Of a DNA stretch of 64,000 nt, positions 1 to 28,916 are shown piece after piece. Position 1 is the stretch's first letter; every line of letters starts with the position of its first letter. This DNA is from Betaproteobacteria bacterium (GTDB lineage: Bacteria; Pseudomonadota; Gammaproteobacteria; Burkholderiales; Usitatibacteraceae), in assembly GCA_040006575.1 (NCBI GenBank), contig JBDTWS010000002.1:1380-65379 (forward strand), given 5' to 3'. The position numbers were made by a program, and so were the translations under genes. The notes below the pieces were generated by a model. That model had not been told where the DNA came from and made no database searches. It was given only the letters and a program-made list of their open reading frames with translations.

Positions 1-182
1 ACGGCGGGCCCGGATTCGCGCACGTGGCCGTAGGCTGTTTTGCGGCCTTCGCTAAATATGCCAAGCTCATTGAGCTTAAGAACAAAGGTTTGTGAGCCGC
101 TTGGCGCCGCCTCGCCGGATGCGCGCTGGTAAAATAGCCGATTAACGATTGATGCCGCCGAATGCGCGGCCCGGGATTTGTC

Positions 183-1253
183 ATGATCATCGTCACCGGC
201 GGCGCCGGATTTATCGGTTCTAATTTCATTCACGCCTGGCTGGCCGCAGGCCTGGGTCCAGTCGTCAACCTCGACAAGCTGACCTACGCGGGCAACCTCC
301 AGTCACTGGCGGATATCTCGCACCATCCCGACTATCGATTTGTCCACGCCGACATCGGTGATCGCACGCGCATTCACGCGCTGCTGCGGGAAGCGCGACC
401 GACCGCCATCCTCAATTTCGCTGCCGAAAGCCATGTGGATCGCTCAATTCACAGCGCCGGCGATTTCATCCAGACCAACATCGTCAGTACCTTCAACCTG
501 CTGGAGGAGGTGAGGGCGTATTGGGGAGAGCTTGCCGATAGCGAGAAGGCCGATTTTCGTTTCCTGCACGTGTCCACCGATGAGGTTTACGGCTCGCTGG
601 GTGCGGACGATGCGGCGTTCACGGAACAACACCGGTATGAGCCGAACAGCCCGTATTCAGCATCGAAGGCCGCGTCGGATCACCTGGTGCGCGCCTATCA
701 CCACACCTACCATTTGCCGGTGCTGACCACCAATTGTTCAAACAATTACGGGCCCTATCACTTCCCCGAAAAATTGATTCCGCTGGTGATCCTTAACGCG
801 CTGGCCGGCAAGCCGCTGCCGGTCTATGGCGACGGACAAAATGTACGCGACTGGCTGTATGTCAGCGATCATTGCGCGGCTATCCGCATGGTGCTGGCCG
901 GCGGAAAACCGGGTGAGACGTACAACGTGGGCGGGCGCAATGAGCGAACCAATCTTGAGGTGGTCAATGTGATTTGCACATTGCTCGATGAGCTGCAACC
1001 GCGTGTGGATGGCAAGCGTTATGCGGCGCAGATCACTTTCGTTGCCGATCGCCCGGGCCATGACCGCCGTTACGCGATCGACGCATCGCGCCTCGAGTCC
1101 GAGCTGGGCTGGCGCGCGCAGGAAAATTTCGAGAGCGGAATTCGCAAAACAGTCGAGTGGTACCTTGCCAACCCGGAATGGGTGCGGTCCGTGACGAGCG
1201 GCGATTACCGGCAGTGGATGCAGCAACAATATGGAACGAAGGCTGCGGCATGA
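183..1253 (+). CDS. rfbB: dTDP-glucose 4,6-dehydratase
   Basis: ORF 162..1253. The in-frame ATG at 183 gives [15 protein letters not shown] (Rossmann GxxGxxG). YSASKAASD supplies the SDR YxxxK motif. The ORF is RmlB-like along its whole length. Its stop overlaps the rfbA start (ATGA at 1250-1253). Confidence 0.95.
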
Positions 1254-2131
1254 AGCGCAAAGGAATCATCCTGGCTGGTGGCAGCGGCACGCGCCTGTAC
1301 CCGGTAACCCAAGTTGTTTCAAAACAACTGCTGCCGATTTACGACAAGCCGATGGTGTACTACCCGTTGTCCACCCTGATGCTCGCGGGCATACAGGACA
1401 TCCTGATCATCTCGACGCCGCACGATATGCCGCAATTCCAGGAATTGCTCGGTGATGGAAAGAAGTGGGGTCTTTCGCTTTCCTATGCGGTGCAGCCCTC
1501 GCCCGACGGACTCGCGCAGGCATTTCACATCGGCAAGGATTTTGTCGGCAACGCTGATTCAGCGCTGATACTGGGCGACAACATTTTCTATGGCCATGAC
1601 CTCTCCGTATCGCTGCAGCGTGCGCACGAAAAATCAACGGGCGCCACGGTGTTCGCCTATCCCGTCCATGATCCGGAACGCTATGGCGTCGCCGAATTCG
1701 ATGCCGCGGGCAAAGTCATTTCGCTGGAGGAAAAGCCGGCAAAGCCGAAATCGCGCTATGCGGTTACGGGCATTTATTTTTACGATAACCAGGTGTGTGA
1801 CCTCGCGCGTTCGTTGAAACCTTCCACGCGCGGCGAACTGGAAATCACCGACCTGAACCGTCTTTATCTCGAACAAGGTTCGCTGACCTGCGAGGTCATG
1901 GGACGCGGCATGGCGTGGCTGGATACCGGCACGCATGAGTCGCTGCTGGAAGCCTCGCAATACATCGCTACCATCGAGCGGCGCCAGGGCCTCAAGGTCG
2001 CGTGCCCCGAGGAAATCGCATTTCGCCAGGGTTGGATTTCAGCAGAGGACATCCAGGCGCTCGCCAAGCCCATGTTGAAAAACGGTTACGGGCAATACCT
2101 GATGCAGATGCTCGCTGAGCGCGTGTTCTAG
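1250..2131 (+). CDS. rfbA: glucose-1-phosphate thymidylyltransferase
   Basis: Internal ATG at 1250 of ORF 1157..2131 gives [18 protein letters not shown], the nucleotidyltransferase G-rich loop. Length (~293 aa) is typical of RmlA and the gene sits in an rfb operon. Confidence 0.95.
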
Positions 2132-2142
2132 GGTTACGTTGC

Positions 2143-2694
2143 ATGAATGTCATCGACACGGCGATCGCCGATGTAAAGATTCTTGAGCCCAAAGTGTTTG
2201 GCGATGAACGCGGTTTCTTTTTTGAAAGTTTCAACGAACAGAATTTTCGCAATGCAATCGGCACCGATGCTGTTTTTGTCCAGGACAATCATTCGAAGTC
2301 GGTCAAGGGCGTGTTGCGCGGCCTGCACTACCAGATCCAGCAGTCGCAGGGAAAATTGGTGAGGGTCGTCGCGGGCGAAGTGTTCGACGTGGCGGTGGAT
2401 ATTCGACGCAGTTCGCCCACATTTGGCCGGCATGTCGCCCTGCGCCTGTCGGCCGAAAACAAACGCATGCTCTGGGTTCCCGCCGGTTTTGCACACGGCT
2501 TCGTGGTGACGTCCGACAGCGCGGAATTCCTGTACAAAACCACGGACTACTACGCCCCGCAGCACGATCGCAGCCTGCTCTGGAACGACCCGGCGCTGGC
2601 CATCGACTGGCCGATCGCGGAAACAGGCACACCGCAACTCAAGCCCGCGGACATCAACGGCAAGCGGCTCGCCGAGGCTGAGCTGTTCGACTGA
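2143..2694 (+). CDS. rfbC: dTDP-4-dehydrorhamnose 3,5-epimerase
   Basis: 183 aa cupin with FGDERGFFFESF, RGLHYQ and GFAHGF motifs typical of RmlC. Confidence 0.95.
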   Translation: MNVIDTAIADVKILEPKVFGDERGFFFESFNEQNFRNAIGTDAVFVQDNHSKSVKGVLRGLHYQIQQSQGKLVRVVAGEVFDVAVDIRRSSPTFGRHVALRLSAENKRMLWVPAGFAHGFVVTSDSAEFLYKTTDYYAPQHDRSLLWNDPALAIDWPIAETGTPQLKPADINGKRLAEAELFD

Positions 2695-3614
2695 TGGGCA
2701 TTGCAGCAGACACGCCACGCATCTTGATCACGGGAGCCGATGGGCAGCTGGGTTGGGAGCTACAGCGTTCATTCGCATCGGAAGGCGAAATATTTGCCTT
2801 TGACCGTTCGGCGATGGACCTGTCATCACCCGACGCTATCCGTTCCCGTTGCCGTGAAATCCGGCCCACGCTGATCCTGAATGCGGGCGCATATACCGCC
2901 GTGGACAAGGCTGAGTCTGAGCCGGACATGGCCATGCGCATCAATGGTGAAGCGCCCGGAATACTTGCCGAAGAGGCGAACAAACTCAATGCCGTGCTGG
3001 TCCATTACTCAACCGATTATGTTTTCGACGGAACCGCAGGCTCGCCGTACCGGGAGACAGACACTACTGCACCGCAAAACGTTTACGGCCGAACCAAGCT
3101 CGCCGGTGAACAAGCCGTAAGCACAATGGCGAAGCGCTTTGCCACATTCCGCACGAGCTGGCTGTACGGAAACCGTCGTCACAATTTCATGCTCACCATG
3201 TTGCGTCTTGCGCGGGAGCGCGAAGAGCTGCGCGTGGTGGCCGATCAAACCGGTTCGCCAACCTGGGTGCGCGCTGTCGCCGAAGCGACACGAGAATGCG
3301 TGCAGTCAGGCGCGTTGCGCATTGAGCCGGGCATCTATCACCTCACTGCAAACGGCCAAACGACCTGGCACGGTTTTGCGACTGCGATCCTGGATGGGAC
3401 CGCCGGTGAGCCACGCCTCGCGCAGCGCGTGGTGGCCATCAACAGCGGTGAACTCGCGATGCCGGCCAAGCGACCGAGCTACTCGGTTTTGTCACTAAGC
3501 AAACTGGAACTTGCCCTGGGCCATGAAATGACTGACTGGCAAGAGCAACTGCGGCGGTGCATTGCGGAGAGAAAATCGATAGACTCCAGCACCGGGGCGG
3601 CTTCCGTGGCATAA
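2694..3614 (+). CDS. rfbD: dTDP-4-dehydrorhamnose reductase
   Basis: ILITGADGQLG Rossmann loop, STDYVFDG and YGRTKLAGE (YxxxK). The start overlaps the rfbC stop by 1 nt (TGATG). Confidence 0.9.
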   Translation: MGIAADTPRILITGADGQLGWELQRSFASEGEIFAFDRSAMDLSSPDAIRSRCREIRPTLILNAGAYTAVDKAESEPDMAMRINGEAPGILAEEANKLNAVLVHYSTDYVFDGTAGSPYRETDTTAPQNVYGRTKLAGEQAVSTMAKRFATFRTSWLYGNRRHNFMLTMLRLAREREELRVVADQTGSPTWVRAVAEATRECVQSGALRIEPGIYHLTANGQTTWHGFATAILDGTAGEPRLAQRVVAINSGELAMPAKRPSYSVLSLSKLELALGHEMTDWQEQLRRCIAERKSIDSSTGAASVA

Positions 3615-3870: not shown

Positions 3871-5646
3871 TTGCTTAACCCTGTTGAAAATCCTGTAGAC
3901 CCGATTGGCGAAAGCGCGCCGGTGCCGATGCTCAAGCTCGGCGAGACGCTCATGTCGCAAGGCAAGCTGGACATCGCCAACCTGGACCGCGCGCTGAAGG
4001 TGCAGGAGTCGGCAAGCATTGCCGGTTCAACGCACGAAAAACTGGGCTCCATCCTGACTCGCATGGGCATGATCTCGGGCCGTGACCTGGCGGAAGCATT
4101 GGCACGCCAGCGCGGCTGGACCATCGTTGAGTCCACCGAATTTCCCGAGCTGCCGATACTGGAAGAAACGGTCTCATCGCGTTTCCTGCAGGAAGCGCGC
4201 GCCATCCCGGTTACCGAAACGGAAAGTGAAGTTGTGCTGGCGATGACCGATCCGGCGGATCAATTCACCTTGCGCGCCCTGGCGGCCGCAACCCGCAAAA
4301 CCATCGTGCCGAAACTGCTTTCCTCCACCGATTTCGATGCGGTGTATGAGCGTTTGTACGGTAGCGGAAAATCATCGATGGGCCAGATCGTCGACAACAT
4401 CGCCACGCGCGATGATGAACAGGATTTTGGCGATATCGAGCAACTGAAAGACCTGGCGTCGGAAGCGCCCGTTATCCGGCTGGTAAACCTGATCATCAAT
4501 CACGCGCTGGAACGGCGCGCGTCTGATATTCATATCGAGCCGTTCGAGAACCGCCTCATCGTGCGCTACCGCATCGACGGCGTATTGCACGAAACCGAAT
4601 CGCCGCCGCGCCGCCTATCCGCGGCCGTGATTTCGCGCATCAAGATCATGGCGACGCTGGATATCGCCGAACGCCGCCTGCCGCAGGACGGACGCATCAA
4701 GCTGCGCATCCAGGGCAAGGAAATCGATTTGCGCGTTTCCACCGTGCCCACCATGCACGGTGAAAGTGTGGTGATGCGTATTCTCGACAAGGGCGGCGTG
4801 GCGCTGGATTTCCATGCGCTTGGATTCGACGAAGACAACCTTAAAGTTTTCATTTCGATCCTCGAGCAGCCGCACGGCATCCTGCTGGTGACCGGCCCGA
4901 CTGGTAGCGGTAAAACCACGACGCTGTACACGGCGCTGGATCGCCTCAACAAGCCCGACGTAAAAATTCTCACCGTCGAGGACCCGGTCGAATACCAGAT
5001 GGCCGGTATCAACCAGATCCAGGTGAAGCCGCAAATCGATCTCACCTTCGCCAACGCGCTTCGCTCCATCGTGCGGCAGGATCCCGACGTCATCATGATC
5101 GGTGAAATTCGCGATCTGGAAACGGCCCAGATTGCGGTGCAGTCCGCCCTCACGGGACATATGGTGCTGTCCACCATCCACACCAACGATGCGGCGGCGA
5201 CGATTAACCGCCTGCTCGACATGGGCGTGGAAGATTACCTGTTGACGTCGACCATCGTCGGCATCCAGGCGCAGCGGCTGGTGCGCACGCTGTGCCCACA
5301 TTGCAAGGAGGCGTATCACCCTGTCGATGAACTGGTGCAACAGCTGAACCTGAAGCGCTTTGTGCGCAAACCCCAGGCGGAATCCGGTAAACCGCTGTCG
5401 CTTTTTCATGCCAAGGGATGCGAGCACTGCGCGCATACCGGCTACTTCGGCCGCCAGTCGATCATGGAAGTTTTGCCGATGACCGATAGTTTGAGGAGCC
5501 TCATCATGCGGCACGCCACGTCGTCTGAATTGCGTTCCGCCGCCATTGCCGAGGGCATGGAGACCATGTACGAAAACGGTCTCAAGCAGGCCGTCGGCGG
5601 CATCACCACGATTGAAGAAGTCTTGCGCGTCACGCGCGAAGACTAG
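3871..5646 (+). CDS. gspE: type II secretion ATPase GspE, with N-terminal T2SSE_N/MshEN-type domain
   Basis: Walker A GPTGSGKTTTLY, Walker B-like VIMIGEIRD, His box GHMVLSTIHTND, and a tetracysteine zinc motif CPHCK...GCEHCAHTGY. The start is uncertain: TTG at 3871 or ATG at 3928 (MLKLGETLMSQGKL). Confidence 0.9.
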   Translation: MLNPVENPVDPIGESAPVPMLKLGETLMSQGKLDIANLDRALKVQESASIAGSTHEKLGSILTRMGMISGRDLAEALARQRGWTIVESTEFPELPILEETVSSRFLQEARAIPVTETESEVVLAMTDPADQFTLRALAAATRKTIVPKLLSSTDFDAVYERLYGSGKSSMGQIVDNIATRDDEQDFGDIEQLKDLASEAPVIRLVNLIINHALERRASDIHIEPFENRLIVRYRIDGVLHETESPPRRLSAAVISRIKIMATLDIAERRLPQDGRIKLRIQGKEIDLRVSTVPTMHGESVVMRILDKGGVALDFHALGFDEDNLKVFISILEQPHGILLVTGPTGSGKTTTLYTALDRLNKPDVKILTVEDPVEYQMAGINQIQVKPQIDLTFANALRSIVRQDPDVIMIGEIRDLETAQIAVQSALTGHMVLSTIHTNDAAATINRLLDMGVEDYLLTSTIVGIQAQRLVRTLCPHCKEAYHPVDELVQQLNLKRFVRKPQAESGKPLSLFHAKGCEHCAHTGYFGRQSIMEVLPMTDSLRSLIMRHATSSELRSAAIAEGMETMYENGLKQAVGGITTIEEVLRVTRED

Positions 5647-5660
5647 GCGCGGAACCCCTC

Positions 5661-6914
5661 ATGCCGATGTACCAGTACAAGGCGGTATCGCCTGCCGGTG
5701 AAATCAAGGAAGGTGTGCTCGAGGGCGTCACGCACTCAGGCGTCATTGCGCACCTGCAATCGCTGGGGCTGATACCGATTCGCGCGGCGGAAGTGGGTGT
5801 GGATGGCGTGGGCGCACCCGCTTTTTCGGCGACAGCGCCTGGAACATCGAAACCAGCATTTACGCTTGGTGGTCGAGGCAAGGTCAGCCAGGGCGATCTG
5901 CGCCTGATTACGCGCGAACTTGCCACGCTGCTGCGTGCCGGACTCGCGCTCGATCGCAGCATGGAAATCCTGATTCGCCTCTCCGAAAAGAAAAATGCCT
6001 CGGAGTTGCTGACTGAAATTCGCAATGACGTTCGCGGTGGTTCTTCGCTGTCGAAAGCGCTCGACAAGCATCGCGACGTGTTTTCACGTTTCTATATCAA
6101 CATGGTGAGAGCGGGCGAAGCGGGTGGATCGCTCGCCAATGTGCTGCTGCGGCTGGCCGACTACATGGAGAGCGCATCGGAGTTGAAAGAGAGTGTGATC
6201 TCGGCGCTGATCTATCCGGCCATCCTTTTTTTCGTGGCGGTGTCTTCCGTTCTCGTGCTGGTTATCTTTGTCGTGCCGCAGTTCAAGCAGATTTTCGATC
6301 AGTCCGGCAAAGCGCTGCCGATCGTGACGGACATGGTGCTGACGACCGGTGTGTTCCTGCGTCACAACTGGCCCATCATTCTCGCCGGTGTAGTGCTGGC
6401 TATCTGGCTGTTTGCACGTTCATTTGCAAAACCGGAAAACCGTGCGCGATGGGATGCGAGATTTTTGGGCTGGCCCGTCGCAGGCAACCTGATTGCCAAG
6501 GTGGAAATGGCGCGCTTCTCGCGTTCACTGGCGACGCTGCTGCAAAACGGCGTGCCATTGCTGACGGGGCTCGCGATTCTCAAGGACACACTGGGCAATG
6601 CGGTGTTTCGCAATGCCGTCGAAATCATCTCGCGCGATCTCAAGGAAGGCCGCGGCATGACCAAGCCGATGATGGAAGCCGGCGTTTTTCCCAAGCTGGC
6701 CGTGCAGATGATCGGCGTGGGTGAAGAAACCGGCAAGCTCGATGAAATGCTTTACCAGGTGGCGGAAGTGTATGACCGCGAAGTCGCGGCCGCCGTAAAG
6801 CGCGCTCTCGCGCTGATCGAGCCGGTGATGATCGTCGGGCTCGCGTTATTGATCGGCGGCATCATCATGTCCCTGCTGGTTGCCATGTTCGGTTTGATGG
6901 ACATACCGCTTTAA
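5661..6914 (+). CDS. gspF: type II secretion inner-membrane platform protein GspF
   Basis: 417 aa with two T2SSF-type repeats and three hydrophobic segments. It lies immediately after gspE. Confidence 0.9.
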   Translation: MPMYQYKAVSPAGEIKEGVLEGVTHSGVIAHLQSLGLIPIRAAEVGVDGVGAPAFSATAPGTSKPAFTLGGRGKVSQGDLRLITRELATLLRAGLALDRSMEILIRLSEKKNASELLTEIRNDVRGGSSLSKALDKHRDVFSRFYINMVRAGEAGGSLANVLLRLADYMESASELKESVISALIYPAILFFVAVSSVLVLVIFVVPQFKQIFDQSGKALPIVTDMVLTTGVFLRHNWPIILAGVVLAIWLFARSFAKPENRARWDARFLGWPVAGNLIAKVEMARFSRSLATLLQNGVPLLTGLAILKDTLGNAVFRNAVEIISRDLKEGRGMTKPMMEAGVFPKLAVQMIGVGEETGKLDEMLYQVAEVYDREVAAAVKRALALIEPVMIVGLALLIGGIIMSLLVAMFGLMDIPL

Positions 6915-6944
6915 TCGTTTCCTTTTTTTGCCGGAGTAATCGTC

Positions 6945-7379
6945 ATGAAAAAAACTATGCATCGCAAGGGCTCGCAGGGTTTTTCCCTGATCGAAATCAT
7001 CGTTGTCATCACCATCATCGGTCTGATCGTCGGCTGGGCTGCGACACAGATTTTTGGCAAGGGCGATATGGCGCAAGCAAGAATCGCCAAAAGCAAAATC
7101 GTCGGGATGAGTGGCCCACTGGACTTGTACAAACTCGATACTGGCAAATTTCCAAATACGAGCGATGGTTTGAAGGCGCTGATTACGGCCCCGAGCGGCG
7201 TTACCAACTGGAACGGCCCATACGTGCGCAACGCCGACGAACTGAAGGACCCATGGAAAAACGATCTCATTTATCGTTCACCGGGCGCTGACAACCGCCC
7301 TTGGGAAATCGTTTCGCTGGGCTCCGACGGCCAGGAGGGTGGCGAAGGCGCCGCCCGTGACATCAAGTCCTGGGAATAA
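6945..7379 (+). CDS. gspG: major pseudopilin GspG
   Basis: Prepilin leader ending G|FSLIEIIVVITIIGLI with Glu at +5. 144 aa with GspG-like C-terminal motifs (DPWKNDLIYRSPG, GSDGQEGG). Confidence 0.9.
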   Translation: MKKTMHRKGSQGFSLIEIIVVITIIGLIVGWAATQIFGKGDMAQARIAKSKIVGMSGPLDLYKLDTGKFPNTSDGLKALITAPSGVTNWNGPYVRNADELKDPWKNDLIYRSPGADNRPWEIVSLGSDGQEGGEGAARDIKSWE

Positions 7380-7391
7380 ATAGTCCTCTCG

Positions 7392-7862
7392 ATGCAAATC
7401 ATGCGCCAACGCGGTTTCTCCCTGCTCGAAATGGTCGTGGTGATCGTTATCATCGGCCTTTCGTACACCTTGCTGCCCAAGATGGTTTTCTCGGGCGTTT
7501 CGGGTGCGGACCTGCGTTCAAATGCGCGCGCCGTTGCGAGTGGGTTGAGGATCACACGCGATACCGCGATCAACACACGGCGCGAAGCAGTAATGTCGCT
7601 TGATCTTGAAAACCGCCAGTTCACAGTGCAAAACGACACGACCGTTCACAAGCTGCATGAACTGCTGGATGTAAAGCTCTACACCTCACAAGCTGATCTG
7701 ATCACCGACAAGATGGGCAGCATTCGCTTCTACCCGGATGGGTCCTCGAACGGGGGACGCGTGACCGTGGCCGCTGGCGGGCGCGGTTTTGAAGTGGATG
7801 TTGATTGGCTGACAGGACGCGTCACCATTAAAGATGCTGCACCCGGAGATGGCCGTGGATAG
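7392..7862 (+). CDS. gspH: minor pseudopilin GspH
   Basis: Leader MQIMRQRG|FSLLEMVVVIVIIGL with Glu+5. Size and position after gspG fit GspH. Confidence 0.75.
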   Translation: MQIMRQRGFSLLEMVVVIVIIGLSYTLLPKMVFSGVSGADLRSNARAVASGLRITRDTAINTRREAVMSLDLENRQFTVQNDTTVHKLHELLDVKLYTSQADLITDKMGSIRFYPDGSSNGGRVTVAAGGRGFEVDVDWLTGRVTIKDAAPGDGRG

Positions 7863-7883
7863 GGCGTCTCGGAGGCATTTCGC

Positions 7884-8375
7884 TTGAAGAAGCGCGTAAA
7901 CAGTGCGTCTTGGCATCGCCGCCCAGCACGGGCGGGAATTTCTGCGCGCGTGCGTGGCGCGCACGGATTCTCGTTGCTGGAAGTGCTGGTGGCGTTCACG
8001 CTTTTTTCCGTCGCGCTGGGTGTGCTGATGCAAATATTTTCCCGCGGCGTAAATGGCGCGTCGATCGCAGACCATTACGCGAAGGCAACCATGTACGCGG
8101 AATCCAAACTCGCTGCGGTGGGTCTGGAAGAAGTAATCAAGGAAGGTACAACAAGCGGAAAGTTCGATGACGAAACTTATGCCTGGCAGGTGACGGTCAA
8201 GGCGTACACCGACCCCGCTCCGCGTGACCAGCTGGCGCTGGATTTTGAGAAACAGTATTACGCACAGTTGTACGAGATCGAAGCGAAGGTCACGTTCGCC
8301 ACTGATGACAGGAAAGAACGTGTCGTAAGTTTGTCCACGCTGCAGTTCGGGCCGCGAAGCAGTAATCCATCATGA
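7884..8375 (+). CDS. gspI: minor pseudopilin GspI
   Basis: G|FSLLEVLVAFTLFSV prepilin motif. Assigned by gene order. The start is uncertain because TTG at 7884 gives a long leader. Confidence 0.7.
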   Translation: MKKRVNSASWHRRPARAGISARVRGAHGFSLLEVLVAFTLFSVALGVLMQIFSRGVNGASIADHYAKATMYAESKLAAVGLEEVIKEGTTSGKFDDETYAWQVTVKAYTDPAPRDQLALDFEKQYYAQLYEIEAKVTFATDDRKERVVSLSTLQFGPRSSNPS

Positions 8376-9088
8376 AGAACCTGTTCCGCGTCCGTCGCGA
8401 TCATTGCGTTCAAGGATTTACGCTGCTGGAACTGCTGGTCGGGCTGACGCTGCTGGGCGTCTTGCTGATCCTGATTTATTCCGCACTCAATGTCGGCTTG
8501 CGCGCGTGGGACACGGGAGAGCATCGTGCCGGTGAGGCGAGTCACCAGCGCATCGTGCAGAGTTTTTTGAGGCGCGAGCTGGGACAGGTTTTTCCGGTTC
8601 GCTGGCGCGGAATCGCGGAATCGAAAATCGCCTTTGAGGGCGCAAAAAGTGAAATCAAATTTGTTACTGCATTGAATCTCGGGGCTTCAATCAAGGAGGG
8701 CGGCCTGCAGTGGGGCCATCTGTATGTGGCTGACGATCCCGAGCAAGGTCCCGATGGCAAAAGGCGGCAGTCACTGTTCCTGAAGCGGGAGGTGTTTGAT
8801 CTTCAGGCAAAGGACTGGGGCGGGCTGGATGAAGCAAAACCGACGCGCCTGATCGCCGGTGTGAAGGAAATTGAAATCTCGTATTTTGGTTCGGAAAACG
8901 ACAACACCGATCCGAAGTGGGCAAGCGAATGGGCGTTTCCACTTCGCGTGCCGACGCTTATCAAATTCGTTGTAAAGACCGACACGGGTCGGGAAGTCCC
9001 CGACCTGGTAGTGGCGCTGAAGCTGGGTGAAGAGGCCGGCTGCTATGACAATGCTTTCCAGCGCCAGTGCGCCCCGCGGAGAGCGTGA
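8372..9088 (+). CDS. gspJ: minor pseudopilin GspJ
   Basis: QG|FTLLELLVGLTLLGVL prepilin motif. ATGA overlap with gspI. The 238-aa size fits GspJ. Confidence 0.75.
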   Translation: MKNLFRVRRDHCVQGFTLLELLVGLTLLGVLLILIYSALNVGLRAWDTGEHRAGEASHQRIVQSFLRRELGQVFPVRWRGIAESKIAFEGAKSEIKFVTALNLGASIKEGGLQWGHLYVADDPEQGPDGKRRQSLFLKREVFDLQAKDWGGLDEAKPTRLIAGVKEIEISYFGSENDNTDPKWASEWAFPLRVPTLIKFVVKTDTGREVPDLVVALKLGEEAGCYDNAFQRQCAPRRA

Positions 9089-10095
9089 TGTCGATTTCAC
9101 TGCGCCCACGCCCGCGAATGCTGCACATTGCCAAACGCCAGTCGGGCATCGCATTGATCATTGTGCTGTGGATCATGACGCTGCTGATGTTGATCGCATC
9201 TTCATTCATACAGTCCATGCGCACGGAAATTAATATTGTCGGCAACTCGGTCACGCGGGCGAAGCTGGAAGCGGTGGCCAATGCCGGCGTCCAACGCGCC
9301 ATTCTTGAAATGGTGAAACCGCCGCAAATGACCGACCGCTGGAATGTTTATGGCGTGCCGCAGGAATGGAACTTCCAGGGCCAAACGGTGAAAGTCAGCA
9401 TGCTGGATGAATCGGGCAAGATCGATATCAATGTCGGCAACGAAGGGTTGCTGCGCGGCTTGTTTCGTTCGCAAGGTCTATCTGAAGAGGAGGCGGCCGC
9501 ATTGATGGATGCGATCCTCGACTGGCGCGACCTGGATACAATCAAACGCCTGCATGGCGCCGAGGAAGAGGAATACAAGGCCGCCGGCCTCACGTACAAG
9601 CCGGCGAACGCAGCCTTCCAGTCGATCGAGGAACTGCGCCTGGTCCTGGGAATGACGCCGGCACTTTTTCAGCGCATTGCGCCACTGATAACAATTTATT
9701 CCCGCCAGCCTGGCATCAATTCCCAGATAGCCTCCCGTGAAGTGCTGCGGGCGATTCCAGGCGTTTTGGAAGAGCAGATCGATGAATACATCAAGCAACG
9801 TGAGCTGGCCCGTGCCAGCAAACTTCCTGTTCCCGCGTTCGGGCCTGCAGCGCTGTTACCCAGTTTCGGGAACGGTGTCATGAATGTAAGGGTCGAAGCC
9901 AGCAGCGAAGATGGAACGACATTCGTTCGGGAAGCGGTAGTGCTGCGCTTGCCCTTTCCCAAGCGTTCCTATACCTTCCTGCGCTGGCAGGAAGGCGCTC
10001 CCCTCGATAACTCAATCATCCCCTCTACCGCTATCCCGCCGGCAACGGCGTCCGGGATTGGCAAGGTTGCTGTCAATGACGGCAAGAGCCGGTAA
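9088..10095 (+). CDS. gspK: minor pseudopilin GspK
   Basis: RQSG|IALIIVLWIMTLLML lacks Glu+5, as expected for GspK. Large periplasmic domain of about 335 aa. ATG at 9088 overlaps the gspJ stop (TGATG); an alternative ATG lies at 9121. Confidence 0.8.
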   Translation: MSISLRPRPRMLHIAKRQSGIALIIVLWIMTLLMLIASSFIQSMRTEINIVGNSVTRAKLEAVANAGVQRAILEMVKPPQMTDRWNVYGVPQEWNFQGQTVKVSMLDESGKIDINVGNEGLLRGLFRSQGLSEEEAAALMDAILDWRDLDTIKRLHGAEEEEYKAAGLTYKPANAAFQSIEELRLVLGMTPALFQRIAPLITIYSRQPGINSQIASREVLRAIPGVLEEQIDEYIKQRELARASKLPVPAFGPAALLPSFGNGVMNVRVEASSEDGTTFVREAVVLRLPFPKRSYTFLRWQEGAPLDNSIIPSTAIPPATASGIGKVAVNDGKSR

Positions 10096-10113
10096 TCCCG
10101 CAGCCCATTTCCT

Positions 10114-17723: not shown

Positions 17724-17864
17724 TCGTTTGAAGATGCAATCTGTATGCAAGAGTTTACATTCTTGGGTGGCCTCGCCTGCTAGCATCGGTTGCACTAATA
17801 AGAAAAAATATCTTCACTCTGCCGGGACCATTACGTGATTTATGTTGGACTTAAGAGGAACAAA

Positions 17865-19526
17865 ATGAATATTCAAAATTTAAAGATAGTGCTGGCATCA
17901 GCGCTACTCTCAATCTGTACTTTTAGCAGCGTGCAAGCGCAAACGGCCGTATCCATAAATGGCACAGTGTGCGCCGGCGCCACGATTGTTTTCGGTGCGG
18001 GTGGAATCAATGTGAACGCAGCCGCGAATTGCGTCGGCACGACGGGACAAGTTCCATCGATCAACAACAGCACGCCAGCGAACGCCGACCAAGGGGCCTT
18101 CTATAGCCATTCCTTCTCGGCTAACGGATCTACGCCACTTTCCTGGGCCGTTACAAGTGGCGCTCTACCTGCCGGAATGGGAATCAACGCAACAACGGGG
18201 GTCGTAAGCGGGACACCGACGACAATCCAGACATACTCATTTTCTGTAACAGCATCCAACACCTTCGGTACCAGTGCGCCGCTCTCGACGTCCATCAATG
18301 TTGTCGCCCCAAGTGGCCCGCCCGTATTTGGAAATTCTCCACCTACAACTGCCAGCATCGGCACAGCGTATAGTCATCAGTACACGGCAACCGGCGCCGC
18401 TCCCATTGCGTACTCCATAGTCTCTGGAGTTCCTCCATCTGGAATAACGTTGAGCCCCACAGGTCTGCTGGCGGGAGCGCCACTTGCAGGTGCGGTCACT
18501 TCAGCGTTTACAGTGCAAGCGTCGAATAGTGTTTCCACAACGACGCAAGCCGTCAACATCGCAATCATTGCTTTGGTGGGACCGACGATTACCAGCTTTG
18601 CACCGCCCGCGGGAACTGTGAATGCCGCCTACACGTACACATTTGCAGCGAGTGGTTCTGCACCAATTACGTGGGACAAGGCCACTGGCACATTGCCCCC
18701 TGGCTTGACGATCTCGGCAGCTGGAGTACTTAGCGGGACGCCCACGACAGCAGGTACTTACACCTTCACAGCAAGGGCCACAAATTCGGTAACAAATGCG
18801 GTGTCTGCGAACATTAGCATTACAATTTCCCCACCAATTAGCAGCGGTGGGTTCGGCTCAGCCGACATTAACGGCAACCCGATCCCAGCGCCAGTGTCAC
18901 GCGTAGCCAAAGCGATTCTGGCGCCTCACGCAGGACCTAACGGCGGTGGCGGACAAGGCGGGCTTGATGCCAATACAATCAATGCTTGGTCTGTCGATCC
19001 AACGGTATGCTCCAACGCGACACCCGGCATCAGCACACTGTGGTATCACAATGTTAGCCTGCTTGACTACGGCAGCCAATCCGCAATCGAATACTTTGAC
19101 TTCCAACCCAATCAGGCGATTACCTACGCATTTATGTCGCCACAACCCACGACAACCCAGGAAGCCGCAAACGGGCAGGTCGGACGTCTCTTTATCACGC
19201 AAGGTCCTAGCGGTACACCTGCATCTTCGTTTGTATCTGTGTCAACCTCTCCATGCGATTTTGATGTCACAAAGATCGCATCCGGAAACAAATGCTACGC
19301 AACCGGGTCAAACGAGAATGGCTTTACATTCCAGGTTACCGGCGGTGTTGGCGTTGGCACGGTGTGCAAAATGGCGCCGAACACCAAGTACTATTTGAAT
19401 ATTCGCTTCCAGGATGCGCGTCCCGCACCAACAGGAACACCAACGCTAGATGCATGTACGACGCAACTGTCGACGCGGCCGGGTTCAAGTACCTGCGGAG
19501 TATTGCTGCAAATCCAAACTTACTAA
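17865..19526 (+). CDS. secreted protein with three He_PIG (putative Ig) repeats and an unknown Cys-containing C-terminal domain
   Basis: ATG at 17865 preceded by SD AAGAGGA. Signal peptide MNIQNLKIVLASALLSICTFSSVQA|Q. The repeats carry the LPxGxxxxxxTGxxSGTPT signature. Confidence 0.8.
   Translation: MNIQNLKIVLASALLSICTFSSVQAQTAVSINGTVCAGATIVFGAGGINVNAAANCVGTTGQVPSINNSTPANADQGAFYSHSFSANGSTPLSWAVTSGALPAGMGINATTGVVSGTPTTIQTYSFSVTASNTFGTSAPLSTSINVVAPSGPPVFGNSPPTTASIGTAYSHQYTATGAAPIAYSIVSGVPPSGITLSPTGLLAGAPLAGAVTSAFTVQASNSVSTTTQAVNIAIIALVGPTITSFAPPAGTVNAAYTYTFAASGSAPITWDKATGTLPPGLTISAAGVLSGTPTTAGTYTFTARATNSVTNAVSANISITISPPISSGGFGSADINGNPIPAPVSRVAKAILAPHAGPNGGGGQGGLDANTINAWSVDPTVCSNATPGISTLWYHNVSLLDYGSQSAIEYFDFQPNQAITYAFMSPQPTTTQEAANGQVGRLFITQGPSGTPASSFVSVSTSPCDFDVTKIASGNKCYATGSNENGFTFQVTGGVGVGTVCKMAPNTKYYLNIRFQDARPAPTGTPTLDACTTQLSTRPGSSTCGVLLQIQTY
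18075..18836 (+). repeat. three tandem ~85-aa He_PIG-type Ig-like repeats (protein level)
   Basis: The repeat cores are YSHSFSANGSTPLSWAVTSGALPAGMGINATTGVVSGTPTT, YSHQYTATGAAPIAYSIVSGVPPSGITLSPTGLLAGAPL and YTYTFAASGSAPITWDKATGTLPPGLTISAAGVLSGTPTT. Confidence 0.75.
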
Positions 19527-19549
19527 TACTGCCGTAAGTTTTACAAACT

Positions 19550-19582
19550 CGCAGGCGGAATTTATTTCCGCCTGCGTTTTTT
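19550..19582 (+). terminator. rho-independent terminator
   Basis: CGCAGGCGGAAtttatTTCCGCCTGCGtttttt: 11-bp stem followed by a T6 tract. It ends 14 nt before the PPIase start codon. Confidence 0.75.
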
Positions 19583-19595
19583 CATAAAGACGTCC

Positions 19596-20537
19596 ATGAA
19601 ACTCGCAAAAAAAATTCTGTTCCTCGCATTTACCACATTGCTGCCAATTGCCGCATATTCACAGACCCCCCTTCCCAGGGACAAGGTGCTCGCATCAAAC
19701 CCGCGCGCCACAGTGACATACGCTGATTTTGAAGCGGAGATGGCTCGCATTCCGCAAAGGGATCAATACGAATTCATGATGGACAAGGATCGCATCGCGA
19801 CCCTGGTCGACAATATTCTGATCAACAAGACACTGGCAATTGAGGCTCGCGAAAACAAGCTCGAAAACAATGTGCAGGCCCAGGCTGAAATTAGCAATCA
19901 CACTGACAAGGTGCTGGCTAAATATCGCGGCCTGCAAATCCAGAACTCCGCTCCAAAGATCGATTACCTGCCACGCGCCCGCGAAATATATCTCGCTAAC
20001 CCGGAGCGATTCACGTCTGCGCCGCTATATGACGTTTGGCATGTCCTGGTCAATTTCACCGGACGGACCAAGGAGCAGGCAAAAGTTCGGGCTGATGAAC
20101 TGCGCGCCAGACTCGTCGCTGGAGAGTCTCCCGAAAAAATAGCAGCCGAGAACTCGGACGATGGCTTCGCAAAAACCGACAAGGGCAATCTCGGACCTTC
20201 CGACCTGAAGACCTATGACGTGAGATTTGCCGCGGCCGTCCGTAAGCTGAAACCAGGTGAGTTTTCCCCGGTTTTTGAATCGGAGTTTGGGTTTCATGTC
20301 GCCAAGCTCCGCGCTTACAAAGCAGCGGTAAAGCTCCCGTTTGAAACGGTAAAAGCAGCGCTTATTAATGAGGCAGAGGACCAGTATCTCAACTCCGTTT
20401 GGGAAGCGCACCTGCGAAAGATCCGGAACGATCCCAAGCTTTTTGTAGACGTCGAAGCGCTTGAACAGTTGCGCCCGAAGGTCGCGCCCGTACCATCCGC
20501 CCTGCCGTTGCCCGGCGCGTCGCCAAAATCGAAGTGA
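19596..20537 (+). CDS. periplasmic parvulin-type peptidyl-prolyl cis-trans isomerase (SurA/PpiD/EpsD-like)
   Basis: Signal peptide MKLAKKILFLAFTTLLPIAAYS. PpiC/rotamase domain (VWHVLVNF...GNLGPSDL...FESEFGFHVAKL). Confidence 0.85.
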   Translation: MKLAKKILFLAFTTLLPIAAYSQTPLPRDKVLASNPRATVTYADFEAEMARIPQRDQYEFMMDKDRIATLVDNILINKTLAIEARENKLENNVQAQAEISNHTDKVLAKYRGLQIQNSAPKIDYLPRAREIYLANPERFTSAPLYDVWHVLVNFTGRTKEQAKVRADELRARLVAGESPEKIAAENSDDGFAKTDKGNLGPSDLKTYDVRFAAAVRKLKPGEFSPVFESEFGFHVAKLRAYKAAVKLPFETVKAALINEAEDQYLNSVWEAHLRKIRNDPKLFVDVEALEQLRPKVAPVPSALPLPGASPKSK

Positions 20538-20544
20538 CCCACAA

Positions 20545-21321
20545 TTGCTCGCAAAGGGAAACTCACTGCTGCTGGCGCGCTTCACCGAGCGTGAAATCTT
20601 CACGCGCTTCGCCGGCAGCACCCTAGGGTTTCTCTGGGCGCTGCTGGGCCCTTTGCTGCTGCTCGGAATCTATTCGTTCGTATTCGGTCAGTTATTCCAG
20701 CAACGCCAAGGTGACCTGGCCACGGACAGCTACACGCTTTTCGTAGCCATTGCACTCTGGCCGTGGATGATGTTTTCCGATGGCGTGCTGCGCTGCATGC
20801 AGAGTATCCACACCAACGCAGCGTTGGTGAAGAAAGTAGCATTTCCGCACTTGCTGCTCGTCCTTGCAGCCAATAACAGCGTGTTTCTAGTCCATCTGGC
20901 CGGCTACGTCGCCGTACTGGCGGTGCTGGCTCTTGCAGGTTCCAGCATCGATCTGGCCGGCATCCCCGTCGTCCTGATGTCAATCATCACGCTATACCTT
21001 TTCTCGCTTGCGTTGGGCGCGATACTCGCCGCCATGCAAACGCTGTTGAGGGATGTTGAACAGGCTATAGCGCCCGCAATGATGATGCTCTATTACCTGA
21101 CGCCAGTTTTGTATCCGATAACTTTGATTCCGATGCAATATCGCCACTGGCTAACCTGGAATCCATTGGCATACGTCATTCAGCGCATGCGTGATGGCCT
21201 TCTATTGGGACAAGGGTTGCAAATGGGTGACTTCGGCATGCTTTTCGCCGGCGTTGTCGCAGCGATCCTGGGCGTTGCATTCTTCATCCGACTCTCACCG
21301 TACTTCGAAGATTTCCTGTAG
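20545..21321 (+). CDS. wzm: ABC-2 type polysaccharide export permease
   Basis: Six hydrophobic segments. The N-terminus RFTEREIFTRFAGSTLGFLWALLGPLL is typical of Wzm/KpsM/TagG. The start is uncertain: TTG at 20545 avoids overlap with the PPIase gene, whereas the ORF track extends to 20461. Confidence 0.8.
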   Translation: MLAKGNSLLLARFTEREIFTRFAGSTLGFLWALLGPLLLLGIYSFVFGQLFQQRQGDLATDSYTLFVAIALWPWMMFSDGVLRCMQSIHTNAALVKKVAFPHLLLVLAANNSVFLVHLAGYVAVLAVLALAGSSIDLAGIPVVLMSIITLYLFSLALGAILAAMQTLLRDVEQAIAPAMMMLYYLTPVLYPITLIPMQYRHWLTWNPLAYVIQRMRDGLLLGQGLQMGDFGMLFAGVVAAILGVAFFIRLSPYFEDFL

Positions 21322-21470: not shown

Positions 21471-22691
21471 TTGTCAACCTCAACCACAGACAAACTTGTC
21501 CGGATAGTCGGCATCGGCAAGGACTATCCCATCATCCGTACCGGTTCCGGCCGGCTGCAAACGATATTTGAGCTGCTCAGCGGTCGCGCAGTCCATGAGT
21601 ACTACCGCGCGCTAAACGACGTCTCACTCACGATTGTGCGAGGAGAGTCGTGGGGCATCATCGGCGAAAACGGAGCGGGGAAATCGACGCTCATGAAAAT
21701 CATCGCGGGCGTCGTCAAGCCATCGCGAGGCACCGTCGAAGTGCGCGGTCGGATCAGCGCCTTGCTAGAACTGGGAACCGGCTTCCACCCTGAATATACC
21801 GGGCGCGACAATATATTCCTTGCCTCAGCCCTGATGGGTTGGAGCCGGGCAGAAACCAGCGCTCGCATTGAAGAAATTCTCGAGTTCGCCGATATCGGCA
21901 CGCACGTGGACCAGCCTGTGAAAACCTATTCCTCCGGGATGGTCGTGCGACTCGGATTTGCGGTCGCCACCGCGCTTACGCCGGAGCTGCTTGTTACCGA
22001 CGAAGTCCTCGCAGTGGGCGACGAATCGTTCCAGAAAAAATGCCTTCGATGGATGGAAAATTTCCGTGCGCGCGGCGGCACGCTGCTGCTGTGCTCACAC
22101 AGCATGTATCACATCCAGTCGCTTTGCCAGAACGCCATCTGGATCCATGAAGGTCGCGTTCACATGCAGGGCGAGTCTTTCGCCGTCACACAGGCATATC
22201 TCGCGTACCACGAAGCAAAGAATCGCCGAGAAGCTACTCCCGTCGCCAGCGAGCTCGCCCAAGGCTCACCCTATCCCATGCTGGAATCGGTCTGGGTGGA
22301 AGATGCCAACGTGGCGGAACGCAACATTTTTGAAATGGGTGAAAACATTTCACTGTGTGGAATTTTCACCAACCCGGATGACCAGGCCACAGTCATCATG
22401 ACTGGAATCACCCGAATGGATGGCACGCCCGTGTTCGGTACGTTTTCCAACGATGCCGGGTTTGCCGCCAATCGACTGTCGGCCGGCCGCTTTGGTTTCC
22501 GTTTAACCCTCGATGCGCAGACCCTGCTGCCGGGTGTGTACCAGCTTCGCGCGCACACGCTGGATGAACATGGTCTCCGTCTCTTCGATACGCGGGAAGT
22601 CCAGATCACGGTGAGTGGCAAGACTCGCGATCATGGCCTCGTTCGACTTTCACATCAATGGTGCCCAGGGCACGAACGCAAATCCGCATGA
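21471..22691 (+). CDS. wzt: polysaccharide export ABC ATPase with C-terminal glycan-binding-type domain
   Basis: Walker A GENGAGKSTL, signature YSSGM, Walker B LLVTDEVLAVGD. An extra ~150-aa beta-rich C-terminal domain (nt ~22233-22691) resembles Wzt_C. TTG start. Confidence 0.9.
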   Translation: MSTSTTDKLVRIVGIGKDYPIIRTGSGRLQTIFELLSGRAVHEYYRALNDVSLTIVRGESWGIIGENGAGKSTLMKIIAGVVKPSRGTVEVRGRISALLELGTGFHPEYTGRDNIFLASALMGWSRAETSARIEEILEFADIGTHVDQPVKTYSSGMVVRLGFAVATALTPELLVTDEVLAVGDESFQKKCLRWMENFRARGGTLLLCSHSMYHIQSLCQNAIWIHEGRVHMQGESFAVTQAYLAYHEAKNRREATPVASELAQGSPYPMLESVWVEDANVAERNIFEMGENISLCGIFTNPDDQATVIMTGITRMDGTPVFGTFSNDAGFAANRLSAGRFGFRLTLDAQTLLPGVYQLRAHTLDEHGLRLFDTREVQITVSGKTRDHGLVRLSHQWCPGHERKSA

Positions 22692-26707: not shown

Positions 26708-26714
26708 TCCGCCC

Positions 26715-28916
26715 ATGACGCTTCAGCAGGCAGTGGCATCGCTCCAGGCCGGGAATGTCGACAACGCGTTGGCGCAGTTGACGACGCTCGCATCGCAACC
26801 CGCGGCGCCCGTGGAAACCTTCAGCTGGCTGGCTATCGCAAACGTACGTGCGCAACGATTACCGGACGCGGCACGCGCCATCCAGCGTGCTATTGCACTG
26901 GCGCCGGGCAATGCAAATTTCTACCTCACTGCCGCCAATATCCAGCAGGACCTGGGCGATCTTTCATCTGCGGTCGACTTGCTCACACAGTCGATTCGCG
27001 TAGACCCTGCCTTCGCGCAGGGTCACAACAATCTTGGCATCGTCCTCACCGATCTCGGCCGCATTGAAGAAGCAATACCGGCTTTCCGGGAAGCCATCCG
27101 GCTCAATCCTGCGTATGCGCGAGCGTACGCAAACCTGGCTGCTGCACAAGTGCGATCGCTACAGTTTGCAGACGCATTGTCATCTGCACAACGCGCCACC
27201 GAGCTGCAACCCGACTACGCACACGCACACCACCTCCTGGGCAATGCGCTGGTGATGACTGGAAATACCGCCGCTGCAGAGGCCGCGCTCAGGACCGCTA
27301 TCCGGCTGAGGCCCGACTTCGCGGAGGCTTCATTGTTGCTCGTCAAGACACTTACAAAACTGAAGCGCGCCGACGAAGCGGAGCAGGTGTGCCGACAGGC
27401 GTTGTCGCTGACGCCGGGACGGCATGATCTTTGGGCTGCACTGGGTGATATAGCGGCCGAACGCGACGACCTTGCCGAAGCGTTGGGCGCCTACCAGCGC
27501 GCGCTTGAATTGCGTCCGAATGACCTGTCCACCACGACGCGCGCCGCACTGCTGTTGCCCAACATCTACATCAATGAAGCGCACGTCGATGCATGCCGTG
27601 ACCGCATCACCCAAGGCATTGCGCACCTTCACGCCAACGTGGAGGCGCTGACCAAATCGTTTCAGCCGCAGCGCTTCGGCGACGCTATCGCGAATAGTTT
27701 CCTGCTGGCCTACCAGGGACGTGACGACAAGCTGTTGCAACGCGACTACGCCGACTTTGTAGCCAAGGTCGCGGCCCATGCGTTGCCCATGGAAAGTCGG
27801 GCGTCGTTGCACAGCGCCACACAGCGCGCACCTCGCATCCGCATCGGGTTCTGCAGCCGTTTTTTCTATCGCAGCACAGCGGGAAATTACTTCGCCAGCT
27901 GGATCACCGACCTTGATCGCAGCATCTTCGAAATTTTCCTGTATCACTCGCATATTGTTGACGACGATCTCACACGCCGCTTGCGCGGTGCGTCCGACCA
28001 TTTTTTCCAGGCCGAGGAAAATTTTTCCGTGTTGCTGGGGCAGATCCGCAACGACGAACTCGATATCCTGGTCTATCCCGAGATCGGCATGGACAGGACG
28101 GTTTACCTGCTGTCGAGCATGCGACTGGCGCCGGTACAAGTGTGCGGCTGGGGCCATCCCGTGACGCCGGGCCACCGCGCCATCGATTACTATTTTTCCT
28201 GCGAAGCCATGGAGCCGGCGGGTGCGCAGGCACATTACAACGAACAGTTGCGACTGCTGCCCGGCATCGGTACGCGCTATGAGCGCCCGCAGATTTCGCC
28301 GGAAGCATCAGCCAAGACGCGGGCCGATTACCAGCTGCCCGAAGATGCCACGCTGTACCTTTTTCCCCAGTCATTGTTCAAGGTACATCCGGCCAATGAC
28401 CGCCTGCTGGTCACGGCAATTGCCAACGATCCGCGCGGCGTGCTGGTGATGTTCGCCGGGCAGAACGCTGCCGTCACGCAAAAATTCGTCACGCGACTTT
28501 CAGCCGCCTTCGCCGAGTTGGGCCTTGCGGCTCAGGGCCGCGTGAAAATCCTGCCCGGCGTGGGGCACGATGATTACAAACGCATCAACCAGCTGTGCGA
28601 TCTCATGCTGGATACGCTGCACTGGTCAGGCGGCAATACTTCGCTGGATGCGCTTGCAATGGGCCTGCCCATCGTGACGCTGCCGGGTGCTTATATGCGC
28701 GGGCGCCAGACCATGGCGATGCTTAAGCTGATGGGCATCGAAGAACTGATTGCGCAGTCGCCGGAAGAATACCTGGCCATCGCGCTCCGCCTGGGAACTG
28801 ACCGGGAATATCACAATGATATTTCGCGGCGCATCCTGCAGCGTGCTGATCGAATATTCGATGACCCCGAACCCCCGCAAGCGTTGGGCCGGTTACTCGC
28901 TGAACTGCTGCGTTAG
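26715..28916 (+). CDS. TPR + GT41 (OGT/SPINDLY-like) glycosyltransferase
   Basis: ~8 TPRs followed by a GT41-like domain. The stretch MLDTLHWSGGNTSLDALAMGLPIVTLPGAYMRGRQTMAMLKLMGIEELIAQSPEEYLAIALRLGTDREY aligns by eye to the C-terminal catalytic lobe of human OGT. Confidence 0.8.
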   Translation: MTLQQAVASLQAGNVDNALAQLTTLASQPAAPVETFSWLAIANVRAQRLPDAARAIQRAIALAPGNANFYLTAANIQQDLGDLSSAVDLLTQSIRVDPAFAQGHNNLGIVLTDLGRIEEAIPAFREAIRLNPAYARAYANLAAAQVRSLQFADALSSAQRATELQPDYAHAHHLLGNALVMTGNTAAAEAALRTAIRLRPDFAEASLLLVKTLTKLKRADEAEQVCRQALSLTPGRHDLWAALGDIAAERDDLAEALGAYQRALELRPNDLSTTTRAALLLPNIYINEAHVDACRDRITQGIAHLHANVEALTKSFQPQRFGDAIANSFLLAYQGRDDKLLQRDYADFVAKVAAHALPMESRASLHSATQRAPRIRIGFCSRFFYRSTAGNYFASWITDLDRSIFEIFLYHSHIVDDDLTRRLRGASDHFFQAEENFSVLLGQIRNDELDILVYPEIGMDRTVYLLSSMRLAPVQVCGWGHPVTPGHRAIDYYFSCEAMEPAGAQAHYNEQLRLLPGIGTRYERPQISPEASAKTRADYQLPEDATLYLFPQSLFKVHPANDRLLVTAIANDPRGVLVMFAGQNAAVTQKFVTRLSAAFAELGLAAQGRVKILPGVGHDDYKRINQLCDLMLDTLHWSGGNTSLDALAMGLPIVTLPGAYMRGRQTMAMLKLMGIEELIAQSPEEYLAIALRLGTDREYHNDISRRILQRADRIFDDPEPPQALGRLLAELLR

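Follow-up and report, generated by a model that had tools for sequence, protein, structure and literature searches.

Is a type II secretion system (T2SS) that lies among sugar and envelope genes the dedicated exporter of a surface array, or general secretion machinery that happens to have such neighbours? The question is raised by a 64,000-nucleotide stretch of DNA (contig JBDTWS010000002.1, hereafter the window) from an uncultured, Usitatibacteraceae-like soil betaproteobacterium. From position 162 to 28916 it carries, consecutively on the + strand, rmlBACD, an 11-gene T2SS, a small lipoprotein gene, the gene of a 547-residue protein, a gene for a secreted He_PIG protein, a parvulin gene, wzm/wzt, and genes for glycosyltransferase family 41 (GT41) proteins with tetratricopeptide repeats (TPR). 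An earlier note on this DNA had reported the same order and read it as a possible locus for the secretion, anchoring and glycosylation of a surface array; open reading frames, Pfam and NCBIfam bear out every gene, position and strand of that description. The locus is very probably a surface-layer (S-layer) biogenesis module of the NpdA type, producing a surface lattice. The central identification, made from sequence and held with high confidence, is that the 547-residue protein belongs to the NpdA family of S-layer proteins.

NpdA was discovered in Delftia Cs1-4, as the protein of its S-layer and nanopods (PMC3110197), and Gajbhiye et al. 2023 identified it as the S-layer protein of Paracidovorax citrulli AAC00-1 by deletion, proteomics and cryo-electron microscopy (PMC10765051). 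It was this literature, not profile libraries, that gave the window protein its identity, as it has no match in Pfam, in NCBIfam (to E = 10) or among PDB sequences. NpdA sequences for comparison were taken from the supplement of PMC10765051. By BLASTP the window protein aligns over its full length with the Usitatibacter palustris ortholog WP_171164597 (36% identity, E 9e-75) and over 362 residues with the verified P. citrulli NpdA, WP_011797163 (27% identity, E 1e-24). The motifs PYY/PYF, KVRF, LSPxDVWT, TREGY, TDW...PT[KR]R, [DN]REE, C.E, NGW, LP.xG and H[KR].T are common to the window protein and P. citrulli NpdA, and 37 columns, four cysteines among them, are invariant when 106 members of the two branches are aligned jointly.

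The published family is characterized by a Sec signal peptide of about 25 residues, no annotated conserved domain and a conserved cluster of 12 gsp genes upstream of npdA; P. citrulli NpdA is 52.4 kDa (PMC10765051). The window protein shares these traits. It has a signal peptide of 28 residues, with MNTFKMKSMHVAVLAGLAAIGAAGTAEA before the cleavage site (read by eye) and VH after it, a mature size near 52 kDa (519 residues, 54.2 kDa, isoelectric point 5.1), no domain match, and a gsp cluster directly upstream that ends 741 nt before npdA. In composition the mature protein is typical of S-layer proteins, with a high content of Thr, Ala, Val, Gly and Ser. The proposal in the earlier note that this is a surface-array protein stands, with the protein now placed in a family whose S-layer role has been established experimentally in other species.

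NpdA orthologs have been listed for 62 betaproteobacterial and 49 gammaproteobacterial species, including U. palustris, Candidatus Nitrotoga and Neptunomonas (PMC10765051), and the taxa recovered from the GTDB loci described below match that list (Usitatibacter, Nitrotoga, Neptunomonas). The family is far larger than these 111 species. A profile search of 1.84 billion representatives of 50% identity clusters retrieved 4334 proteins at E <= 1e-3, 1991 of them at E <= 1e-30. The window protein has at least 3980 homologs, all unnamed, the closest being a 100% identical protein from a betaproteobacterial metagenome-assembled genome. NpdA-family proteins are still annotated as "hypothetical" because the family has neither a Pfam or NCBIfam model nor a solved structural relative. 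Some members, about 930-975 residues long, carry two complete NpdA modules one after the other, and a protein of 1647 residues carries three (P0241, P0244, P0246-P0248, P0252, P0277); these look like fused-duplicate S-layer proteins.

An AlphaFold2 model built on a 23-sequence alignment was mediocre (mean predicted local distance difference test, pLDDT, 68), and the 106-sequence alignment gave a beta-rich model with a pLDDT of 86.1 and a predicted template modelling score of 0.88. Foldseek searches of the PDB with both models returned no match at E <= 1e-3. The best matches were weak galectin-like beta-sandwiches of about 150 residues (E 5.7e-3, TM-score about 0.12 on the query), too weak for a lectin function to be read from them.

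The npdA gene appears to have expression signals of its own. An AT-rich leader contains a strong, canonical Shine-Dalgarno sequence (AAGGAG), placed 8 nt upstream of the ATG, and is preceded by a promoter-like site, and the claim of the earlier note that the gene has its own terminator is borne out by a hairpin and T run after the stop codon. This terminator was missed by an automated scan, found by eye and confirmed by folding.

The comparative test that the earlier note had proposed was whether homologs of the 547-residue protein keep company with this T2SS subtype and with wzm/wzt. We collected 80 homolog loci from GTDB species representatives, at 33-71% identity to the window protein, and identified neighbours by tblastn with the window proteins. 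The loci cover Usitatibacteraceae, Casimicrobiaceae, Nitrotoga, Sterolibacterium, Rhodocyclaceae, Lysobacterales, Halioglobus and the cultured Neptunomonas marina. Of the 65 loci whose upstream flank reaches 3.5 kb or more, 54 have gspD immediately upstream on the same strand, and two further "negatives" are tandem or masked cases. Where at least 6 kb of downstream flank is available (57 loci), a parvulin gene follows on the same strand in 52 and wzm lies downstream in 47. This gene order recurs across dozens of species and is not due to chance. The reading of the T2SS as dedicated secretion for a surface array is supported by these counts, and the linkage of NpdA to a T2SS had already been published.

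The most instructive single locus is that of P. citrulli itself (P0121, L081), which reads gspF-G-H-I-J-K-L(PilN)-M(T2SSM_b)-C-D, a 139-residue protein, npdA, parvulin, wzm and wzt (with Wzt_C), followed by methyltransferase and glycosyltransferase genes and then a WecA-like gene. The window proteins from GspF to Wzt have their P. citrulli counterparts in the same positions; GspL, GspM and GspC have no tblastn match and were paired by position and Pfam family. Identities are 38% for the lipoprotein, 32-41% for GspD, 27% for NpdA, 24% for the parvulin, 31% for Wzm and 36% for Wzt. The incremental addition of our analysis is that, in two proteobacterial classes, npdA is accompanied by the lipoprotein, the parvulin and wzm/wzt. 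We found nothing in the literature on the linkage of these genes to NpdA, and lipopolysaccharide (LPS), anchors, lipoproteins and prolyl isomerases all go unmentioned in PMC10765051. The Wzm/Wzt linkage suggests an O-polysaccharide anchor.

Some loci depart from this layout. In Candidatus Nitrotoga sp. 1052, the contig that holds the T2SS-linked copy (L024) also has, some 20 kb away, a tandem array of three npdA paralogs (L073, 9575-14199) with 32-33% identity to the window protein; npdA paralogs were already noted in 2011 (PMC3110197), consistent with these tandem copies. In another locus (L076, 8103-18713), the lipoprotein, npdA, parvulin, wzm and GT41 genes are kept, and a topoisomerase gene and rmlC stand upstream in place of the T2SS. 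The secretion genes can therefore be unlinked from the rest of the module.

Several points weigh against reading the locus as a dedicated S-layer module. About 10 of the 65 homologs are found elsewhere, at unrelated loci that have no T2SS, which shows that npdA need not adjoin one, and T2SS relatives whose GspD is 30-37% identical have neither the lipoprotein nor npdA downstream. Wzm/Wzt could serve as the general O-antigen exporter of the cell. PMC10765051 itself calls for a test of whether NpdA depends on the adjacent T2SS. Anchoring of NpdA to LPS or O-antigen is not addressed in the two NpdA papers, as LPS is never mentioned in PMC10765051 and PMC3110197 only profiles LPS in cells and nanopods. 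Finally, the source organism is known from a metagenome-assembled genome alone.

A rival reading is that the T2SS is a general secretion system for many unrelated proteins, which npdA, the parvulin gene and wzm/wzt merely adjoin. Neither the content nor the order of the gsp genes is unusual, and related clusters with a GspE of about 55% identity have unrelated genes downstream of them. Yet the order gspD-lipoprotein-npdA-parvulin-wzm-wzt persists over a range that runs from Comamonadaceae to Gammaproteobacteria, with NpdA proteins 27-38% identical. Of the two gsp clusters of P. citrulli, npdA lies beside only one, gsp1 (PMC10765051). In Aeromonas, moreover, published work regards the T2SS adjoining the S-layer gene as a dedicated exporter of the S-layer protein. 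We consider a general secretion system unlikely. The reverse check, asking whether npdA lies beside related T2SS clusters, gave four positive loci and four to five distant negative ones; it covers the nearest relatives only, with 10-kb flanks from gspE that barely reach npdA. One distant T2SS relative (L148, 13565-14161) is followed by a secreted protein that is not an NpdA, has a high content of Thr, Ser and Ala, and is truncated where the contig ends; it could be another T2SS-linked S-layer protein type.

The features of the locus are collected in Table 1. Its T2SS core (E, F, G, H-K, L, M, C, D) was matched throughout by Pfam or NCBIfam, GspD and GspM above curated cutoffs and GspC/N, GspI and GspJ weakly or below cutoff; Pfam N_methyl also matched among the pseudopilus genes of 3871-12970. 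The order E-F-G-H-I-J-K-L-M-C/N-D is that of Xps, as the earlier note had it, and the same T2SS gene order is found among the homolog loci (L001-L080) and in P. citrulli. Three details of the earlier description need correction. GspD has an N-terminal lipobox, LSAC, which makes it a liposecretin; no prepilin peptidase occurs among the 11 genes of the gsp cluster (3871-15282), the other window ORFs not having all been screened and the rest of the genome not searched; and the Wzt_C match falls under the Pfam cutoff. GC content is 0.53 over 14000-20000 (the end of gspD, npdA and the He_PIG gene) compared with 0.56-0.62 elsewhere in the window outside a second dip at 54-60 kb.

Table 1. Features of the NpdA-type locus and adjoining genes (window coordinates)
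Feature	Position	Strand	Basis or detail
rmlB	162-1253	+	Pfam GDP_Man_Dehyd/Epimerase
rmlA	ends 2131	+	Pfam NTP_transferase
rmlC	2143-2694	+	Pfam dTDP_sugar_isom
rmlD	2694-3614	+	Pfam RmlD_sub_bind
gspE	3871-5646	+	Pfam T2SSE
gspF	5661-6914	+	Pfam T2SSF
gspG (major pseudopilin)	6945-7379	+	Pfam T2SSG
gspH	7392-7862	+	Pfam GspH
gspI	7884-8375	+	NCBIfam best match XpsI, below cutoff
gspJ	8372-9088	+	weak or below-cutoff match
gspK	9067-10095	+	Pfam T2SSK_1st
gspL	10114-11526	+	PilM/PilN-like (Pfam PilN/PilM_2)
gspM	11523-12185	+	GspM_XpsM, 108 bits (cutoff 60); Pfam T2SSM_b
gspC/N-like	12182-12970	+	weak GspC match (GspC_delta)
gspD secretin	13087-15282	+	TIGR02517 type_II_gspD, 439 bits (cutoff 351); Pfam Secretin, Secretin_N, N0
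Small lipoprotein, 136 residues, lipobox TAGC	15447-15857	+	between gspD and npdA
Promoter-like site, TTGAAA, 17 nt, TAAACT	15936-15964	+	consensus match only
Very probable npdA ortholog, S-layer protein precursor, 547 residues	16023-17666	+	BLASTP to NpdA proteins, joint alignment
Intrinsic terminator after npdA	17693-17724	+	14-bp hairpin and T run, dG -23.7 kcal/mol, z -4.9
He_PIG secreted protein	17835-19526 (probable start ATG 17866)	+	Pfam He_PIG Ig-like repeats
Terminator after He_PIG gene	19550-19576		
Parvulin, periplasmic, PpiC/PrsA-like	19596-20537	+	Pfam Rotamase families; NCBIfam PrsA/SurA-like below cutoff
wzm, ABC-2 permease	20461-21321	+	Pfam ABC2_membrane
wzt, ATPase	21471-22691	+	Pfam ABC_tran; weak Wzt_C, below Pfam cutoff
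Double-module TPR-GT41 protein, 1349 residues	22658-26707	+	Pfam Glyco_transf_41 and TPR
Single TPR-GT41 protein, 733 residues	26715-28916	+	Pfam Glyco_transf_41 and TPR
Adjoining LPS genes: GT4, epimerase, GT2, FkbM methyltransferase, MsbA-like ABC, GT9 heptosyltransferase, 338-residue ORF, WaaL-like, GT2	28921-39552		Pfam
WaaL-like Wzy_C protein	37343-38695	+	Pfam

The small lipoprotein has no Pfam or NCBIfam match. Homologs stand between gspD and npdA in 61 loci, with a lipobox in 57 of them, and the P. citrulli 139-residue protein (L081, 9041-9460) is among the relatives, its identity of 38% exceeding the 27% of NpdA. The lipoprotein is a candidate pilotin or assembly or anchor factor. Eleven gsp genes and this lipoprotein gene are counted here, compared with 12 upstream gsp genes in PMC10765051, and the lipoprotein may be the twelfth. 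The parvulin is a candidate foldase for NpdA.

The He_PIG gene, which the earlier note had included in its gene set, is ruled out as a core component by conservation. It is found in the closest relatives only and is an optional accessory, missing from about 14 loci and from P. citrulli; other loci have a different second secreted protein or none. The C-terminal domain of the He_PIG protein, about 220 residues (341-563; window 18855-19526), has no Pfam match and is common to second secreted proteins after npdA elsewhere (L002-L016, of which L016 is Lysobacter, and L071, L079 and L054). It could serve to target or attach proteins that associate with the S-layer.

Conservation separates the glycan genes in the same way. 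The rmlBACD genes (162-3614) encode the dTDP-L-rhamnose pathway. Among 80 GspE-related metagenome loci, rml genes lie directly upstream of gspE in L102 only and nearby in L124. We reject them as part of the module, since they adjoin gspE in one related metagenome locus only; they are a lineage-specific neighbourhood. GT41-like genes occur in 21 of the 38 loci that extend 3 kb or more past wzt, and P. citrulli has none, with methyltransferase and GT2 genes instead. On conservation they too are rejected as core components, and probably belong to the serotype-specific O-polysaccharide genes. Wzm and Wzt, by their domains, form a putative ATP-binding cassette (ABC) exporter of O-polysaccharide. 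Searching the flanks of the other loci, which reach up to 10 kb, for homologs of the adjoining downstream LPS genes gave only one MsbA-like gene, in L021, and distant matches to GT2 in six loci. The proximity of the WaaL-like gene and LPS core genes to npdA is counted in favour of an O-polysaccharide-anchored module.

Directly after the LPS genes, 39515-43129 encodes a tricorn-like protease of 1204 residues (PD40 beta-propeller, Tricorn C1, PDZ, Peptidase_S41). A second glycan-type cluster on the + strand (51228-61413) encodes a 999-residue TPR protein that combines a SEC-C motif with a GT41 domain, together with a DegT aminotransferase, WbqC and several methyltransferases; two ORFs in this cluster have weak GH32N-like matches.

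TPR-GT41 and related enzymes can be protein glycosyltransferases (HMW1C, FlmG-type), which is one reason to ask whether they, or the Wzm/Wzt glycan, glycosylate NpdA and make it an S-layer glycoprotein, with the glycan serving no role as an LPS anchor. NpdA is rich in Thr and Ser, and the Wzy_C protein could in principle be a PglL-type oligosaccharyltransferase. Its gene, however, lies amid heptosyltransferase and MsbA-like LPS core genes, a typical WaaL setting, and the patchy distribution of GT41 described above, with its absence from P. citrulli, argues against the dedicated glycosylation that the earlier note had envisaged. The term "glycosyl" appears nowhere in PMC10765051 or PMC3110197. 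We regard glycosylation of NpdA by these enzymes as quite improbable. That the 547-residue protein is a secreted enzyme or lectin in this lineage and forms no lattice is very improbable: its many invariant residues (including the DRTREGY and NREE motifs and four cysteines) and the galectin-like character of its only, weak fold matches would suit such a role, but no catalytic family in Pfam, NCBIfam or the PDB matches it and the same motifs occur in the verified P. citrulli S-layer protein.

For the NpdA-type S-layer module, our analysis directly establishes the family membership, the conserved order T2SS-lipoprotein-npdA-parvulin-wzm-wzt and the separate npdA expression signals, and the following course of events can be proposed. 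The npdA ortholog would be transcribed separately, between a promoter and a terminator of its own, and NpdA would be exported by Sec via its 28-residue signal peptide. Folding would take place in the periplasm, probably with formation of two disulfides and assisted by the PrsA-like parvulin encoded in the same locus. Passage of the outer membrane would occur through the adjacent Xps-order T2SS with its lipidated secretin, for which the small conserved lipoprotein may act as a pilotin or assembly factor. At the surface NpdA would assemble into a paracrystalline lattice, most likely tethered to an O-polysaccharide made by the neighbouring glycosyltransferases and exported by Wzm/Wzt. The nearby WaaL-like protein would ligate this polysaccharide to lipid A-core, a parallel to Aeromonas VapA/AhsA and Caulobacter RsaA. 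An O-polysaccharide tether is proposed because of the co-conservation of these genes and by analogy with Aeromonas salmonicida (PMC4483657).

The mechanism sketched in the earlier note was largely right; its claim that such a system was undescribed was not, and the rml, GT41 and He_PIG genes it had included are lineage-specific. Systems of this kind were described in 2011, when NpdA was discovered (PMC3110197), and in 2023, when the gsp cluster upstream of npdA was reported (PMC10765051). The window holds no new kind of system. What it offers is the assignment of an S-layer to an uncultured soil betaproteobacterium, a view of the NpdA family as far larger than reported, and, in the lipoprotein, the parvulin and Wzm/Wzt, testable candidates for the folding, secretion and tethering of NpdA lattices.

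The closest known systems are the NpdA S-layers of Delftia acidovorans Cs1-4 and P. citrulli with their gsp1 cluster (PMC3110197, PMC10765051). The window resembles them in its homologous S-layer protein with shared motifs, a cleaved signal peptide and a mature mass of about 52-54 kDa, and resembles P. citrulli in the entire order from gspF through gspD, the small lipoprotein, npdA, parvulin, wzm and wzt. In contrast to the Comamonadaceae proteins, the window protein falls in the Usitatibacter/Nitrotoga/gammaproteobacterial branch (36% identity to U. palustris, 27% to Comamonadaceae). Only the window has a He_PIG gene after npdA, TPR-GT41 genes in place of methyltransferase and GT2 genes, and rmlBACD directly upstream of gspE, and for its lineage the S-layer is a prediction from genes.

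Aeromonas had been named as the nearest precedent in the earlier note. The comparison was apt, and the A. salmonicida locus is much closer than the note realised: the gene table of PMC4483657 gives the A-layer locus as rmlBDAC, wzm, a block of spsE..L, hypothetical genes and vapA, then wzt and glycosyltransferases. In A. veronii, avsA lies between pulD and rfbD (bioRxiv 10.1101/2025.04.15.648961). The likeness is one of gene layout, with the S-layer gene right after a T2SS cluster regarded in published work as dedicated to S-layer export and the whole unit set in an ABC-2 (Wzm/Wzt) O-antigen cluster with rml. The T2SS-vapA block of A. salmonicida stands between wzm and wzt, whereas the T2SS-npdA block of the window precedes both, and no parvulin is seen in the parts of the A. 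salmonicida gene table that were examined (PMC4483657). The AvsA preprint also reports BLAST matches in Usitatibacter and Rubrivivax, which we treat as a lead only (bioRxiv 10.1101/2025.04.15.648961). Tentatively, the NpdA module may be larger than published, with the lipoprotein, parvulin and Wzm/Wzt integral to it and O-polysaccharide as the lattice anchor, and may share ancestry with the Aeromonas design, NpdA and VapA/AhsA being distant homologs. If true, there would be one widespread proteobacterial S-layer biogenesis system.

The gene of Slr4, the S-layer protein of Pseudoalteromonas tunicata, also adjoins a T2SS operon in an arrangement conserved across species (PMC7821379). Slr4 belongs to a separate S-layer protein family according to the NpdA paper (PMC10765051), and threads onto Caulobacter RsaA, whereas the NpdA model has no PDB relative; the Slr4 paper (PMC7821379) makes no mention of O-antigen linkage. 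Caulobacter crescentus RsaA is alike in that its gene clusters with its own secretion system, and differs in that it uses type I secretion, in contrast to the type II system of the window, and has an unrelated fold. The RsaA lattice is anchored to LPS O-antigen. T2SS-linked S-layer genes have thus already been published for NpdA, Aeromonas and Pseudoalteromonas (Slr4), and the window adds a member from an uncultured betaproteobacterium.

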